Part shown: piece by piece, positions 6,232-11,752 of the stretch
Layout: each line of letters begins with the position of its first letter
Numbering within the stretch: position 1 is the first letter of the stretch
NCBI GenBank assembly: GCA_019310965.1
Contig: JAFDDG010000009.1
Location: 3,180-67,179 of the forward strand
Direction of reading: 5' to 3'
Length of the DNA stretch: 64,000 nt
Source of the DNA: Deltaproteobacteria bacterium
GTDB lineage: Bacteria > Myxococcota_A > UBA9160 > SMWR01
Translations under genes and position numbers: made by a program
Notes under the pieces: model-generated
What the model was told of the DNA's origin: nothing
The model's input: only the letters and a program-made list of their open reading frames with translations
The model's database searches: none

Positions 6232-7401
6232 TCAGCCCTCGAGCAGCGCCAGAACCCCCGTGTAGCTGAGCAACTCGGTCACCCCGCCGATCGGCCCGAT
6301 CTCGAACGAGCCGAACATGCCGGCTACCGGCGCCGGCCCCAGAGCCCGGTCCAGGTAGGCGGCTTCGAGCCCAGGAACCCCGAAGAAGCCGGCACCGCGC
6401 GCACAGCAGTTGAGGTAGAGCCCGCATACCGCAGCCGGGCTGACGACGCGCTCGAGCATCGCCTTCAAGTCCTCCCGCGCAGCGGCGGCATCGCGAAAAA
6501 CGAAGGCGATCCGATCACCTGGACGAACCTCCGCCGGAATTGCGAACGCGTTCGCATCTTCCTCGAGGCCGATGGCGTGGCGCACCAGATAGTTGCCGGG
6601 CGCCAGCGAGTCGCCACCCACGCCGGGCACCGGCTGCGCCACGAACACGAACTGCGCGGCGCGCCGCAGATCGTCGGCGAGAGCACCACCCGCCGCCTCG
6701 CGAAATACCTCGAGGGCCGGACGCCCGTCGATCTCGAGGATCCAATGGCCGCGGGCGCCGGTCACGGTGAGGAGCTCCGTCACCGGCCGGCACGCCTGCG
6801 TCACCCCGACGCGGGGCGGCGCGGTGCCGCGCAGCACCAGCGCCGAGATCGCTCCGGTGGCCACGCTGCGGCCGCACCACTGCAGGGGTGCATCGCCCAG
6901 GGCGTCACCGGCACCGGCACCCACCAGCGTGGCGGGCCCCAGCCGTTCACCGAGGGCCGGCAGCAGGGCCGAGCTGTCGAAGGTGCCCGGATCGGGCAGC
7001 AGCACCACCAGGTCTTCCGCACGCGGGGCGCCGAGCCGGGCCACGATCTCCTCCGCCGCAGCCTCCTCCTCGCCCGCCGGGTCCGGGACGAGGAAGGCCT
7101 CGGCCTCTAGGCCCTGGAAAGCGAGCACCGCCACGGCAGCCTGTGCTTCGCTCTCTTGGCCGGCCGCCAGCACGCCGTGGGCAGTGGCCCCCGCCAGCAC
7201 CTCCGTGCCCAGTTCGGCCGCAGTCGCATCGAGAATCAACGACACGTCGTCCCCGTAGCCCGGGCCCACGAAGACGAGGGCGCCATCGGCGCGCCCAGCG
7301 CCCTCGAGCGCCCGCTTGGCGGCTTCTGCCCCCGCCTGGCGGGCATCCGCCGCGGTCGAGATCCCGGCTCCGGCCTGCAACACGCGGAGAGTATCCGGCA
7401 T
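6232..7401 (-). CDS. FIST-domain protein
   Basis: VGVTQACRP, YLVR, YLNCCARG and AGMFGSFEIGP motifs typical of FIST_N/FIST_C. Confidence 0.88.
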   Translation of the reverse strand: MPDTLRVLQAGAGISTAADARQAGAEAAKRALEGAGRADGALVFVGPGYGDDVSLILDATAAELGTEVLAGATAHGVLAAGQESEAQAAVAVLAFQGLEAEAFLVPDPAGEEEAAAEEIVARLGAPRAEDLVVLLPDPGTFDSSALLPALGERLGPATLVGAGAGDALGDAPLQWCGRSVATGAISALVLRGTAPPRVGVTQACRPVTELLTVTGARGHWILEIDGRPALEVFREAAGGALADDLRRAAQFVFVAQPVPGVGGDSLAPGNYLVRHAIGLEEDANAFAIPAEVRPGDRIAFVFRDAAAAREDLKAMLERVVSPAAVCGLYLNCCARGAGFFGVPGLEAAYLDRALGPAPVAGMFGSFEIGPIGGVTELLSYTGVLALLEG

Positions 7402-7588
7402 GCGGGCCGCCCCCGCCTCCGGGTCGGCTGGCCGCTCGGCCCGGCCACGCTTTCACGCCCCGCCGGGCTCGGCTAGCATCGCCGCTGCGTCACCTCGCCC
7501 CTCCTTGGCGTCGCTTGGCTCTCCCCCAGAAAATCAAGTCCCTGCTTGGGTACTCATTCCGAAACCCTCAGGGGACGGAGAGCGGACC

Positions 7589-8875
7589 ATTAAGGCTCCT
7601 GAATTGTCTGATTTCGAAGTCATCGAAACGAAAGCGGATCTAGACGTCCTCGCTCAGGATCTGCAGTCGGAGAAGGTGATCGGCGTCGATACCGAGGCCG
7701 ACAGCTTCTACCACTACTTCGACAAGACCTGCCTGGTGCAGATCGCCACCCGCAAACAGATCTACCTGATCGACCCGTTGGCGCTCGGGGGACCGGCAGA
7801 GCTCGCACCGCTCGGGCCCGTTTTTGCGTCGCCGGAAACCACCACGATCTTCCACGCGGCGGAGTACGACCTCTTCGTGCTGAAGCGCGATTGCGGCTTC
7901 AGCTTCGACGCCCTCTTCGACACGATGATCAGCGCGCAGCTGCTCGGCTACCCGTCCGTCGGGCTCGCAAGCCTGGCGGAACGCCACTACGGAGTGAACC
8001 TGCCGAAGGACGAGCAACGTTCCGACTGGTCGCGACGACCCTTGCGCGACAAGCAGCTCAACTACGCGGCGGCGGACGTGGTGTACCTGATCGCGTTGCG
8101 GGAGATCCTGACCAAGGAGCTGCGCGCCGCGAAGCGATTGCGCTGGGCTCAGGAAGAGTTCAAGACACTGTGTGCGCGGCAGTGGCCCGAACGCGAGTTC
8201 GACAAGCTCGGCTACCTGCGCATCAAGGGCGCGCGCAAGCTCGACCCGAACGGGTTGTCGGTGTTGCGCGAGCTGTACTACGCCCGCGACGAACGCGCGA
8301 GAGAGATCGACCGGCCGCCGTTCAAGGTGCTCGGAAACCGCACGCTGCTCGACATCGCAGAGCGCAAGCCCACAAAGCTGGCAGAGCTGGCCGAAATCAA
8401 GGGCATCACCGACCTGCTGCTGCGACGCCTGGGCCGCAACATCATGGCGGCCGTCCGCAAGGGCCGAAAGGAAGCGCACGGACCGATCCCGAAGCTCGGT
8501 GGCAGCCGCCGGCGCATGGACAGACACGCCGAGCGCAGGCTCGCGGCGCTCAAAGCCTGGCGCGCCGAGCGGGCCTCCGACACGAAGCTCGACCCCGGTG
8601 TGCTGGCACCGAACTCTGTGCTGGAAGCGATTGCCTGGCGCAATCCGTCATCGCAGACAGAGCTCGAGGACTTGCCGGAGCTGAAGGGCTGGTTCCGTCG
8701 GGAATTCGGCGCCGAGGTGGTGCGCACCAGCTGTGACGCGAACGACGCTTTGGCCGCCAAGCCCGAGTCGAAGCCGCAGGGCGGGCGACGCGGCCGTGGG
8801 CGCGGGCGAGGCCGCGGGCAGCGCTCGAGGAGCGGCGGCGAAGACGCCGGCGACGCGGGCGAGGAAGAGGCCTGA
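7589..8875 (+). CDS. rnd: Ribonuclease D (DEDD exonuclease plus HRDC domains); start uncertain (ATT 7589 or TTG 7604)
   Basis: GVDTEAD, HAAEYD, FDTMISAQLLG, QRSDWSRRPL and YAAADV motifs; C-terminal HRDC; RG-rich tail. Confidence 0.92.
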   Translation: MKAPELSDFEVIETKADLDVLAQDLQSEKVIGVDTEADSFYHYFDKTCLVQIATRKQIYLIDPLALGGPAELAPLGPVFASPETTTIFHAAEYDLFVLKRDCGFSFDALFDTMISAQLLGYPSVGLASLAERHYGVNLPKDEQRSDWSRRPLRDKQLNYAAADVVYLIALREILTKELRAAKRLRWAQEEFKTLCARQWPEREFDKLGYLRIKGARKLDPNGLSVLRELYYARDERAREIDRPPFKVLGNRTLLDIAERKPTKLAELAEIKGITDLLLRRLGRNIMAAVRKGRKEAHGPIPKLGGSRRRMDRHAERRLAALKAWRAERASDTKLDPGVLAPNSVLEAIAWRNPSSQTELEDLPELKGWFRREFGAEVVRTSCDANDALAAKPESKPQGGRRGRGRGRGRGQRSRSGGEDAGDAGEEEA

Positions 8876-8912
8876 CCCCCGGGTCGGAGGGTCACTCCCG
8901 TCGCGAGGGGGG

Positions 8913-8953
8913 AGAAACAGAAAGCCCCCGGGTCGGACCGTCCGACCGGGGGC
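8913..8953 (-). terminator. Intrinsic terminator (minus strand)
   Basis: GCCCCCGGTCGGA-CGG-TCCGACCCGGGGGC stem followed by TTTCTGTTTC. Confidence 0.8.
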
Positions 8954-9104
8954 TCTAGCGACTGTCTTTCCGTCTGGGAGACCGAAAAGGCGGGTGCCAT
9001 TCGTTGGGGAAAGCGCCTTATGGATTCGGACTCCTTCCGGAGGATGGGCCGAGCCGTCCGTGCGCGCCCGCTTACGTCCGACTCGGCCACTCCAGATCGC
9101 TGTG
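8913..9104 (-). ncRNA. Putative sigma-54-dependent structured small RNA (~190 nt)
   Basis: Bounded by a sigma-54 promoter and a terminator. 5' AGCGA/TCTGGAG pairs with 3' CTCCCAGA/TCGCT; internal hairpins; no credible protein. Confidence 0.65.
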
Positions 9105-9114
9105 TGGGGACTAA

Positions 9115-9131
9115 AGCAGGAAGCGTGCCAA
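9115..9131 (-). promoter_or_regulatory. Sigma-54 (-24/-12) promoter
   Basis: TTGGCACGCTTCCTGCT, with GG(9129-9128)-N10-GC(9117-9116); close to consensus TGGCACG-N4-TTGCW. Confidence 0.75.
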
Positions 9132-9265
9132 TTCGAACCGCCACCGCGTCGTGTACGCAAGCCCTCGCCCAGACAGCAGTTTCCGTCGGAGCACGGGGCA
9201 CTGCCCGCCCCGCGGTGTGCAGCCTTCGATTGCGGCTTCGCAGCGCCTGCGCAGCGCCCTGGACG

Positions 9266-10432
9266 ATGACCGCGGGCACTCCTCCGCAATTCCGCAGACT
9301 TGGCGGCACCGCCACCCAGAGCGGCGGTGCCGCCAGAGTTGGCGGACTGGCGATACTGTGGGCCGTCCTGACGCTCGCGAGCTGCAGCAGCGGGCCCGCA
9401 CCGCGAGCGGGCGTCCACGTCGCGAGCGCTCCGGCGCCGAGCCGCGACGAGGCGTATTGCGCCTGGTACGGCGACGCCCGCAACGGCGTCCTCTACTTCG
9501 GGCAAGCGGCGTTCTGGTCGGCGTTTCGCGCGGCCGGCGACGATCCAAGGGCAGACCTGCGGGCCGCAGGGCCGCAGCTGATCGGCCGTTTCGACCTCGC
9601 CGCCGAACGCTTCCTGCCGCCCCTCGACGTCACGACACCCGGAGCCCGCTCGGGTGTGTGGGACGTGCACGCGCACGCGAACCGGCGCGTCTACTTCACG
9701 ACCTTCTACGAGAGCATGGGTGCGGTCGACGTCGCGAGCGGGGCGGTGACGCGGTTTCCCGACCTGGGCCTCGGCTTGAACGAGATCGCCCCCCTGCCCG
9801 ACGGCAACCTGCTGGTGACGCGCTACGGCGCGGCGGCGATCGACGGGGTGGACAGCGGCTCTCTCGTCGTCATCACACCCGACGGCGAGCGCGTGGCAGA
9901 GCACGCGGTCGAGCCGCCGGCCGGCTTCACTGCCGCGCCGAAGACCCCCGCCTGGGATGCCCGGCGCCGCGAGTTCTGGACGACCAACGACCTGATCCCG
10001 CACGACCCCGGCCCGGTGCGGACCGACGCGACTGTTCTCGGCTCCGACGGCGTGCAGCTGCGGCGCATCGCCGAGCCAGAGGTCCAGTTCGTGGCGAGCA
10101 GACCGGGCGGCGGGCTGGTGCGCGTCGAGCATGCCGTTGACGGACTGTGGCTCGTCTCGCCAGACGACGCGGCGCAGCCACGGCTGCTCGACGCGGACTT
10201 CGTCGCAGCGCTCGACTTCGCCCAGGACCTGAAGTTCGCCGCCGCCGGGCGCAGCGTCACCACGCGCTGGAGCGGTTGGCTGCACGTCGCGGCCTCCGAC
10301 GGCTCTGTCCGCTCGCTGCGACTGCCAGCACTCGAGGAGCAGGGCCTCTACTACACCGCCGTGCTCCACGACGAGCGGGTCTGTGCCACCTACTGTGGCG
10401 GCGTGCGGGTGGTGTGCACGGACGCGCCCTGA
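9266..10432 (+). CDS. Hypothetical lipoprotein, probable beta-propeller; start uncertain
   Basis: Hydrophobic segment with LASC lipobox, beta-rich repeats, GC3-biased codons after ~9350. Confidence 0.65.
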   Translation: MTAGTPPQFRRLGGTATQSGGAARVGGLAILWAVLTLASCSSGPAPRAGVHVASAPAPSRDEAYCAWYGDARNGVLYFGQAAFWSAFRAAGDDPRADLRAAGPQLIGRFDLAAERFLPPLDVTTPGARSGVWDVHAHANRRVYFTTFYESMGAVDVASGAVTRFPDLGLGLNEIAPLPDGNLLVTRYGAAAIDGVDSGSLVVITPDGERVAEHAVEPPAGFTAAPKTPAWDARRREFWTTNDLIPHDPGPVRTDATVLGSDGVQLRRIAEPEVQFVASRPGGGLVRVEHAVDGLWLVSPDDAAQPRLLDADFVAALDFAQDLKFAAAGRSVTTRWSGWLHVAASDGSVRSLRLPALEEQGLYYTAVLHDERVCATYCGGVRVVCTDAP

Positions 10433-10456: not shown

Positions 10457-11752
10457 ATGTTCGCAGAGCGGCGGCAACGGATGCACGGTGCGATGGGCGA
10501 TGGCGCCATCGCTATCCTCATCGGTGCAAAGCTCGTCACGCGCTCGGCCGACACCGAGTTTCCCTTCCGCCAGGACAGCGATTTCTGGTACCTGACGGGC
10601 TATGCGCACCCGAACGCCGTGGCCGTGCTGCGGACGGACGGCGGACCCGCCTACACGCTCTACGTCGAGCCGCGCGACCCCGCCCGGGAGACCTGGACCG
10701 GCCATCGCCCGGGCACCGAGGGCGCTGTCGCCAAATACGGAGCGGACGAAGCACACGAGCGCGAGCGCTTCCTGCGCGACCTGCCGGAGCTGGTCGCCGC
10801 GGCACGGCGCATCTTCCACGTGCTGGGGCGCAGTGTCGAGATCGATCGCTGCATCACCGAGAGCATCGAAAATCTGCGGCTGCGCTCGCGTCAGGGCGTC
10901 GAACCGCCGGAGGCAATCGTCGACCCGCGCAGCATCGTGCACGAGATGCGGCTCATCAAGACCGCGGCCGAACTCGAGCTGATGCGGCGCGGCGCGGCGA
11001 TCAGCGCCGAGGCGCACGCCGCTGCGGCGGCGCTGGCACACCCCGGTCGCTCCGAATACGAGCTCGAGGCCGCACTCGAATACACTTTCCGCCGCCGCGG
11101 CGCGAGCGGCCCCGCCTACACGACGATCGTCGGCGGCGCGCACAACGCCGCGGTGCTCCACTACATCAAGAACGACTGTGCGCTGGCGAGCGACAGTCTG
11201 GTTCTGATCGACGCAGGCTGCGAATTCGAAGGCTACGCATCGGATGTGACCCGCACGTATCCCGTGGGTGGGCGCTTCACTGGCGCCAGACGCGACGTGT
11301 ACGAGATCGTGTTGGCGGCACAGCTGGCGGCGCTCGACGCCTGCCGGCCGGGTAACACGCTGCCGCAAATCCACGATGCGGCCGTGAAGCAGCTGGTCGA
11401 GGGCCTCATCGCACTCGACGTGCTCTCGGGCGACGCCGACGAGCTGATCAAGAACGAAAGACACCGACCCTACTACATGCACGGCACAAGCCACTGGCTG
11501 GGGCTCGATACGCACGATGCCGGCTCCTACCGAAAGGACGGAGCGCCCCGGGTACTCGAGCCCGGGACGGTTTTCACCGTCGAGCCGGGCCTCTACTTCG
11601 GCGAGGCGGTCGAGGACATCGACGAGCGCCTGCGCGGCATCGGAGTGCGCATCGAAGACAACGTCGTCATCACGGCCGACGGCCACGAGAACCTGAACAG
11701 CGCCATACCCAAGCTACCGGACGACGTGGAGGCGCTGGTTTCGCAGCGCTGA
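10457..11752 (+). CDS. pepP: Xaa-Pro aminopeptidase
   Basis: [38 protein letters not shown] and RIED motifs. Confidence 0.95.

Follow-up and report, generated by a model that had tools for sequence, protein, structure and literature searches.

A predicted sigma-54-dependent small RNA, convergent with rnd, in one uncultured bacterial order

What is encoded in the spacer between rnd, the plus-strand gene for RNase D, and the plus-strand lipoprotein gene that follows it, and why should it lie beside rnd? We addressed this question for positions 8913-9131 of a 64-kb stretch of DNA from a Deltaproteobacteria bacterium (the window; its host genome, labelled G000, measures 4.66 Mb and is 90% complete), where a preliminary description had placed an unannotated, structured small RNA (sRNA) driven by sigma-54. 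Comparison with related genomes confirmed that the flagged stretch is, as judged from its sequence, the gene of a small non-coding RNA, equipped with a sigma-54 promoter and a terminator of its own. The sRNA is a new family of the sigma-54-dependent kind, a kind already familiar. As an explanation of the whole, we lean towards a stand-alone sigma-54 sRNA with a Y-shaped fold, which would regulate in trans by base pairing and would owe its position beside rnd to inheritance. Throughout, G-labels denote genomes and L-labels individual sRNA loci.

A non-coding RNA gene on the minus strand

Firstly, the minus strand carries a sigma-54 promoter sequence, TGGCACGCTTCCTGCT (9115-9130), whose -24 GG lies at 9128-9129 and whose -12 GC lies at 9116-9117; the exact GG-N10-GC spacing claimed for it is thus borne out. 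This sequence is the sole match to TGGCACG-N5-TGCT in the window, where 0.02 are expected from shuffles; under a looser pattern, the whole genome has 33 sigma-54-like sites, this one included. Promoters and neighbourhoods were compared in 93 distinct sRNA copies. The canonical GG-N10-GC is kept in 76 of them, and a GGCA-type -24 element was seen in each of the 93 listed copies (GGTA in one; judged by eye and uncounted). A subgroup of 17 copies (for instance L078, L084, L112 and L151) keeps TTGGCACG, with the -12 TGC(T/A) replaced by GTGAAAT, GTGTAAT or GTGGAAT; sigma-54 promoters of this form may be weaker, or tuned differently. From the promoter geometry, transcription is predicted to start on the minus strand near 9104, 12 nt 3' of the -12 C, which is where the preliminary description had put it, and the match to the covariance model of the family (R1, described below) starts at 9104.

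Secondly, the unit closes with the intrinsic terminator that had been proposed for it (8913-8954, minus strand), a GC-rich hairpin (8923-8954) followed by the U-tract UUCUGUUUCU (8913-8922). A hairpin with a U-tract follows the core in 65 of the 92 copies to which we applied a strict rule, and in many of the remaining copies a GC-rich hairpin precedes a U-tract that is weaker. Together, the structured core of about 150 nt (8954-9104, minus strand) and the terminator would give a primary transcript of roughly 190 nt.

Thirdly, the stretch is strongly structured and appears non-coding. A segment of 198 nt folds at -97.7 kcal/mol (z = -4.35), a stability reached by none of 200 shuffles. We found no conserved open reading frame (ORF): whichever frame of either strand is read, at least 21 of the 47 copies contain stops, so that the earlier statement that the unit has no credible ORF holds. 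The sequence is present once in its own genome. With Rfam 15 at gathering score there was no match in the whole window and none in 20 homologous loci; at E <= 10, region 8700-9400 gave only chance-level matches (miRNA models, narK and P15). A search of the literature, from which supplementary files were out of reach, returned no description of this RNA. Lacking an Rfam match and conserved with covariation in relatives (below), the unit remains what it had been called, an unannotated class of structured sigma-54 sRNA.

Which strand is the sense strand? The unit is located between two plus-strand genes and the plus-strand reading of the stretch also folds well (-91.9 kcal/mol, z = -2.98), as would be expected if it were not an independent gene at all but a cis-acting element of a plus-strand message, either the 3' untranslated region of rnd or the leader of the lipoprotein gene or of pepP, the peptidase gene beyond it. 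We consider this very improbable. It is the minus strand that carries the conserved sigma-54 promoter and the U-tract, and beyond the terminator only the antisense tail of rnd is found there; moreover, in the alignment, G-U pairs outnumber A-C cells by 198 to 66 when the minus strand is read. Taken with the promoter and the U-tract, this excess of G-U over A-C identifies the minus strand as the sense strand.

The region upstream of the promoter has the textbook layout of an enhancer-dependent (sigma-54) promoter, as read from the comparison of the 93 copies. A 17-bp dyad of the form TGC-N11-GCA occurs in 66 of them, against 5.6 expected, with one cluster some 80-110 nt and another some 175-200 nt ahead of the GG; it is proximal in 52 copies, distal in 32 and present at both places in 18. 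Its consensus, TGC(A/C)NCC-N3-GGN(T/G)GCA, displays a CC/GG symmetry that was no part of the pattern searched for. The IHF-like sequence WWTCAANNNNTTR, which fits the IHF consensus, is present in 19 of the 93 copies against 0.2 expected. A looser core, TCAANNNNTT, was found 24 times and clusters some 40 nt ahead of the GG, with 20 occurrences at -40 to -21. In the window itself, the proximal enhancer-like dyad is CGCAATCGAAGGCTGCA (9218-9234, minus strand), 105 nt upstream of the GG and with one mismatch to TGC-N11-GCA. The host genome encodes one rpoN and 15 enhancer-binding proteins (Sigma54_activat). None of the 33 sigma-54-like promoters of G000 could be linked to the dyads of the sRNA in a regulon search, because the dyads of the window copy are too degenerate to connect them to other promoters.

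We also observed a palindrome of 33 nt, GGCGGCACCGCC-N9-GGCGGTGCCGCC (9302-9334), which falls within the 5' coding region of the lipoprotein gene. It lies 173-205 nt upstream of the GG, where relatives have the distal TGC-N11-GCA dyad, and it drew the chance-level miRNA matches in the Rfam search by E-value. The palindrome could be an activator site or could merely encode the N-region of the signal peptide.

Fold, loops and mode of action

The covariance model R1 was built from an alignment of 22 copies (A2), from which L032 and L033 (coding-like chance matches), L027 (without P2) and L029 were left out. The predicted fold, as shown by covariation, is a Y, that is, a three-way junction of a closing helix (P1), a hairpin (P2) and a long arm (P3-P4-P5). 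The same Y is found in most of the minimum-free-energy folds of the 22 aligned copies taken singly, as judged by eye and uncounted. In a sequence-only MAFFT alignment, 80.4% of the cells at paired positions can pair, compared with 69.0% in shuffled alignments (none of 500 shuffles was as high); compensatory changes are seen in 33 of the 41 pairs, and controls in which the partners were slid reach at most 49.9%. Two further alignments gave the same picture, with the proviso that both model-fitted alignments are biased towards R1 and that A4 was picked by motifs: in the model-fitted alignment (49 distinct rows), 84.5% of the cells pair, compared with 67.3% after shuffling, and compensatory changes are seen in 35 of 41 pairs; in A4, made of 74 pattern matches, the values are 83.5%, 65.5% and 36 of 41.

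All elements of the fold are given on the minus strand. P1 joins the 5' end (GCGAUCUG, 9093-9100) to the 3' end (CAGUCGC, 8958-8964) and has the family consensus GAUCUGG/CCAGAUC; 8 of its 9 pairs show compensatory changes and 83.2% of its cells are paired. The pairing AGCGA/TCGCT, described previously as a closing helix, is part of it. The second closing pairing proposed at that time, TCTGGAG with CTCCCAGA, is not kept in relatives: CTCCCAGA, the 3' segment of that pairing, belongs to the long arm and pairs with GGAGUCCGAA. P2 (9047-9088) corresponds to the hairpin GGCCGAGTCG/CGGCTCGGCC that had been predicted, and it proved real, with compensatory changes in all 15 of its pairs and 86.7% of its cells paired. 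Its loop, UAAGCGGGCGCGCA (9061-9074), bears a nearly invariant GGGCGCG. The long arm (8966-9043) ends in CUUUCCCC...GCACCC. In P3, P4 and the adjacent helix, 74.5-90.5% of the cells are paired and 11 of 11 pairs are compensatory. At its tip, the C-rich apical loop CUUUCCCCAACGAAUGGCACC (8993-9013) is flanked by P5, AAGGCG/CGCCUU (9014-9019 with 8987-8992). P5 too had been described from the single sequence and is retained in the family; it is nearly invariant, so that no covariation signal is possible there. Covariation is silent on P5 and on the loops because they hardly vary.

Other parts of the earlier folding proposal did not survive the comparison. A local hairpin CTCC-GGAA-GGAG is not kept in relatives, the segment being the 5' strand of the arm in the family model, and the GGA motifs, CACGGACG included, are not conserved. 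The pseudoknot suggested between GCGGGCGC and GCACCCGC (GCGGG/CCCGC) obtains no backing from covariation, 91.7% of its cells being paired against 91.4% in shuffles (92 of 500 shuffles as high); on these alignments, covariation neither supports nor excludes it. Another possible loop-loop contact, GGG..GCGC with GCGC..CCC, involves invariant bases only and rivals P5.

Natural variants dissect this RNA. In G040 (L074), P1 and the arm are kept in a core of about 105 nt from which P2 is absent; in G033 (L166), only the promoter, P2 with its GGGCGCG loop and the terminator are found; in G053 (L160), P2 is followed by an unrelated 3' structure. The loops can be regarded as separate units because such variants keep one module without the other, and from this comparison we infer a function for each loop by itself, the simplest being that of a base-pairing seed.

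How might such an RNA act? In the reading that we prefer, RNA polymerase carrying sigma-54 would transcribe the sRNA from the minus strand. It would require an enhancer-binding protein of the NtrC type, encoded elsewhere in the genome, which would occupy one or both of the TGC-N11-GCA dyads located about 105 and 196 nt ahead of the GG. Many relatives also have an IHF-like site between the dyads and the promoter. The transcript would adopt the Y fold, in which P1 closes the molecule, P2 exposes a G-rich loop (GGGCGCG) and the arm exposes a C-rich loop. The sRNA would then most likely be a trans-acting, Hfq-independent base-pairing regulator (Hfq was not found in G000, which is 90% complete), its two conserved loops serving as independent seed modules that switch a set of mRNAs upon the signal sensed by the activator.

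Several observations weigh against this reading. The sRNA is known here from DNA alone, no RNA run being listed for the locus. The -12 GC is missing in 17 of the 93 copies, where TG is followed by A, G or T, and no exact TGC-N11-GCA lies upstream of the window copy, whose dyads are degenerate. None of the 15 activator genes is on the contig of the window. Targets were sought in one genome, at about 5,459 start regions from crude gene calls. With RNAduplex, the mean energy at start regions compared with gene interiors was -18.56 vs -18.09 kcal/mol for the apical loop and -16.94 vs -17.26 kcal/mol for the P2 loop, without enrichment in either case; the top match was the antisense of the sRNA itself. 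Complements of the invariant motifs are likewise no more frequent near start codons, 16 regions having an 8-mer vs about 26 expected. Because this prediction in a single genome gave no signal, base pairing is a step that we infer. Finally, near-invariant loops would equally fit an RNA that binds protein.

This last point leads to an alternative in which the sRNA would be a protein-binding or decoy RNA, of the 6S, Csr/Rsm or Y-RNA type or of a new kind, with its loops as protein contacts. It would account for the single copy per genome, for loops that are near-invariant across the order, for 5' and 3' ends paired as in stable RNAs and for the lack of an mRNA target signal, and 6S RNA is not detected in G000. 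We nevertheless hold it to be improbable. At E <= 10, Rfam gave no match to 6S, CsrB/RsmZ, signal recognition particle or Y RNA; G000, at 90% completeness, yielded no CsrA, Hfq or Ro60/TROVE; the GGA motifs lack conservation; the molecule folds as a three-way junction and not as a rod with a central bubble; four relatives hold a 6S-like locus separate from the sRNA; and either module is kept alone in some lineages.

The named members of this class were rejected one by one. For 6S RNA, RF00013 had no match in the window or in G000, in a search whose control was positive in only 5 of 14 known genomes, and the fold of the sRNA is a three-way junction. In 41 relatives, RF00013 was matched in four genomes (G036, G037, G038 and G040), at loci other than that of the sRNA. 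For a sponge of the CsrB/RsmZ type, which the earlier proposal had evoked from GGA motifs, these motifs are unconserved and CsrA was not found in the genome, with the same completeness, so that the idea finds no support. For a bacterial Y RNA, TROVE (Ro60) was not found in G000 and there was no Rfam match of the Y-RNA type. As a separate observation, RF00013 is matched neither in G000 nor in its 24 same-family relatives and in 4 of 16 genomes from the other families of the order; the family of the window may carry a divergent 6S RNA missed by the Rfam model.

Distribution and the place beside rnd

A DNA similarity search detected the sRNA in 24 of 41 related genomes, with the similarity beginning at the promoter. 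R1 found it as a single copy in 113 of the 151 genomes sampled from the order of the window (66 of 90 high-quality genomes, 56 of 65 genera and 12 of 12 families); one genome of this sample has two R1 matches, and weaker copies lie downstream of rnd in four further genomes first scored negative. In a sample of the phylum, which includes 127 genomes from outside the order, 16 of 151 genomes match R1 and all 16 come from the order of the window; none of the 127 sampled elsewhere in the phylum does, among which are four from the sister family, a member of the same class. A motif pattern, taken with one genome per species, returned 74 records, all of which are also R1 matches and all of which are metagenome-assembled genomes (MAGs), mostly titled Myxococcota or Deltaproteobacteria bacterium. 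Among the genomes sampled, the sRNA as recognised by these models is thus confined to one uncultured order. Some MAG records (L081, L086, L106, L117, L139, L146 and others) are titled Spirochaetales, Spirochaetaceae, Opitutales or Desulfobacterales, titles at odds with the Myxococcota-type locus that they carry.

Within this order, the place of the sRNA gene is fixed on one side. The rnd gene (7316-8875, plus strand; Pfam DNA_pol_A_exo1, 8.3e-44, and HRDC, 2.9e-30) has its stop codon at 8873-8875, 38 nt from the U-tract of the sRNA. It is convergent with the sRNA in 89 of the 93 copies, which are all 89 evaluable loci, the other four loci ending within 270 nt; the physical link to rnd noticed in the window is therefore general. 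The distance from the rnd stop to the 3' end of the core has a median of 79 nt and is often 35-60 nt, so close that the terminator abuts rnd. On the promoter side, the divergent neighbour varies: in 84 evaluable loci it is the lipoprotein gene in 52, pepP in 31 and another gene in one. In the window, it is the lipoprotein gene (9266-10432, plus strand), which encodes 388 aa with a lipobox LTLASC, matches no Pfam family and shares with the divergent sRNA the spacer that holds promoter and enhancer sites; pepP, encoding an M24 Xaa-Pro aminopeptidase, follows (10457-11752, plus strand; Pfam Peptidase_M24, 8e-63, and AMP_N, 8.5e-33). Two side observations concern the other end of rnd. A gene for a stand-alone protein with FIST_N and FIST_C (6232-7401, minus strand) lies divergent from rnd within the conserved block, and the listed start of the rnd ORF (TTG, 7316) overlaps the start of this FIST gene. 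That listed start probably lies too far 5', since relatives resemble the protein only from about residue 72-97 onwards.

Does this constancy mean that the sRNA and RNase D work as a pair? RNase D could remove the 3' trailer of the sRNA, terminator included, and stop at the base of P1, in the way that it trims Pxr-XL, the precursor of the myxobacterial sRNA Pxr. The sRNA could also, or instead, act in cis, as an antisense to read-through from rnd, its induction by sigma-54 cutting or blocking the rnd-lipoprotein-pepP message or making polymerases collide. Such a pairing is compatible with the trans-acting sRNA that we prefer, and trimming and cis action could coexist. We rate it as possible but unlikely. 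It would explain why rnd is the convergent neighbour at every one of the 89 evaluable loci, the gene on the opposite side varying between the lipoprotein gene (52) and pepP (31), and why the terminator sits so near the rnd stop. A closing helix distinct from the terminator characterises RNAs that undergo trimming of a 3' trailer, and the sRNA has such a helix. Read on the plus strand, the terminator hairpin has no U-tract, for which reason rnd transcripts may run through the sRNA gene in antisense. In four genomes without the sRNA gene (G016, G072, G076 and G089), rnd and pepP are separated by 94-168 nt, a spacing that is operon-like. The processing of Pxr by RNase D in vitro (PMC10217877) speaks for such a pair as well.

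The distribution of the two genes argues in the other direction. There is no signal of co-loss: rnd is kept in the four genomes just named and in five genomes of genus g19, where the widespread lipoprotein gene directly follows rnd and the sRNA gene is absent. In this genus, 0 of 6 genomes have the sRNA. As read from these gene orders, the sRNA was lost several times while rnd stayed. In two genomes of the sister family (L172 and L173), rnd and pepP are adjacent, 172 and 292 nt apart, and the spacers hold no R1 match at E <= 1 and neither the promoter motif nor a loop motif. The gene order, being present also where the sRNA was not found, fits an age older than that of the sRNA. Besides, the conservation of loops and helices exceeds the needs of a plain antisense, and in M. 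xanthus pxr and rnd are unlinked (PMC10217877).

Given the adjacency in the sister family and the retention of rnd, inherited gene order alone can explain the linkage. The fixed place beside rnd is best read, from the comparison of loci, as that of an sRNA gene that arose within an old order of rnd followed by the lipoprotein gene or pepP. The linkage is real as synteny, and on the present comparison it does not by itself show a functional tie. A more specific proposal, in which the sRNA gene would be an antisense insertion within a former rnd-pepP operon and would form a module with its neighbour, RNase D maturing the sRNA by removal of its 3' trailer up to P1 and the sRNA, once induced through sigma-54, uncoupling or repressing the message for rnd and the peptidase, seems to us doubtful. 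If it were true, the partnership of RNase D and sRNA found for Pxr would be older and wider in Myxococcota, and hard-wired in the chromosome here.

Comparison with known small RNAs

How does this sRNA, which we take to be a stand-alone, trans-acting regulator, compare with systems already described? With 6S RNA it shares a similar length, a single copy per genome and paired ends; it differs by its sigma-54 promoter and by a three-way junction in place of a bubbled rod. Qrr in Vibrio, CrcZ in Pseudomonas and non-coding RNAs of Desulfovibrio vulgaris depend on sigma-54 and an enhancer-binding protein, and the present sRNA resembles them in its -24/-12 promoter, its upstream dyads and its organisation as a non-coding unit that ends with a terminator. 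Many such sRNAs adjoin the gene of their activator, whereas the present one does not. Another group, Cuckoo/CcsR1-4 and RsaE/RoxS, pairs with G-rich ribosome-binding sites through C-rich loops. The sRNA has in common with this group an exposed C-rich loop, CUUUCCCC, with CACCCC; unlike these RNAs, it has a second, G-rich loop, matches no model of the group and shows no enrichment of complementary sites near starts. The model of CcsR1 (RF02791) gave a chance-level 17.3 bits vs a cut-off of 65.3, on the other strand at 9268-9341 and off the sRNA.

Pxr is the nearest analogue in the phylum, by comparison of the published descriptions, and sets an example of a sigma-54 sRNA, its first loop C-rich, in a phylum member that lacks hfq. 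Two properties ascribed to Pxr when the window was first described, its dependence on sigma-54 and its processing by RNase D, are in print (PMC10217877): synthesis of Pxr needs the sigma-54 regulator PxrR, of the NtrC type, and in vitro RNase D acts on Pxr-XL and yields Pxr-L. The gene pxr lies directly downstream of the activator gene pxrR, and Pxr is described as confined to Cystobacterineae. Pxr is made of three stem-loops, SL1-SL3, and works in a host without hfq (PMC5684412); a published probe against SL1 implies the C-rich loop CCCCCCACCCC (PMC5568312).

The two RNAs have several traits in common. They come from the same phylum, as far as record titles tell; Pxr is under sigma-54 control through an activator of the NtrC type, as is predicted for the present sRNA; both have a C-rich loop with CACCCC; and hfq is lacking in the host of Pxr and was not found in G000. 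The two RNAs also differ. Pxr consists of three stem-loops, whereas the present sRNA has a Y-shaped core of about 150 nt; pxr stands beside pxrR, whereas the present gene stands beside rnd and the lipoprotein gene or pepP, with no activator gene on its contig; Pxr belongs to Cystobacterineae, whereas the present sRNA is found in one uncultured order and is always convergent with rnd. The tie to RNase D is biochemical for Pxr and one of synteny only for the present sRNA. The published SL1 probe, used as a pattern, had no match in the 401 genomes of the phylum sample, so that no Pxr locus entered the comparison and the two RNAs are set apart by the published descriptions of Pxr. No sequence relation to Pxr was detected, R1 having no match in the 127 genomes from outside the order. 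Given this and the differences in architecture and context, membership in the Pxr family is not supported.

The present family, a structured RNA found in more than 110 species-level genomes with strong covariation and a complete predicted sigma-54 architecture, is thus added to Pxr, the sole sRNA of the phylum met in the literature searched, which was not a full survey. It gives a handle on regulation in a lineage known only from metagenomes. Since its convergence with rnd is constant, the maturation of a sigma-54 sRNA by RNase D, isolated until now to Pxr, becomes testable in a second, independent system.

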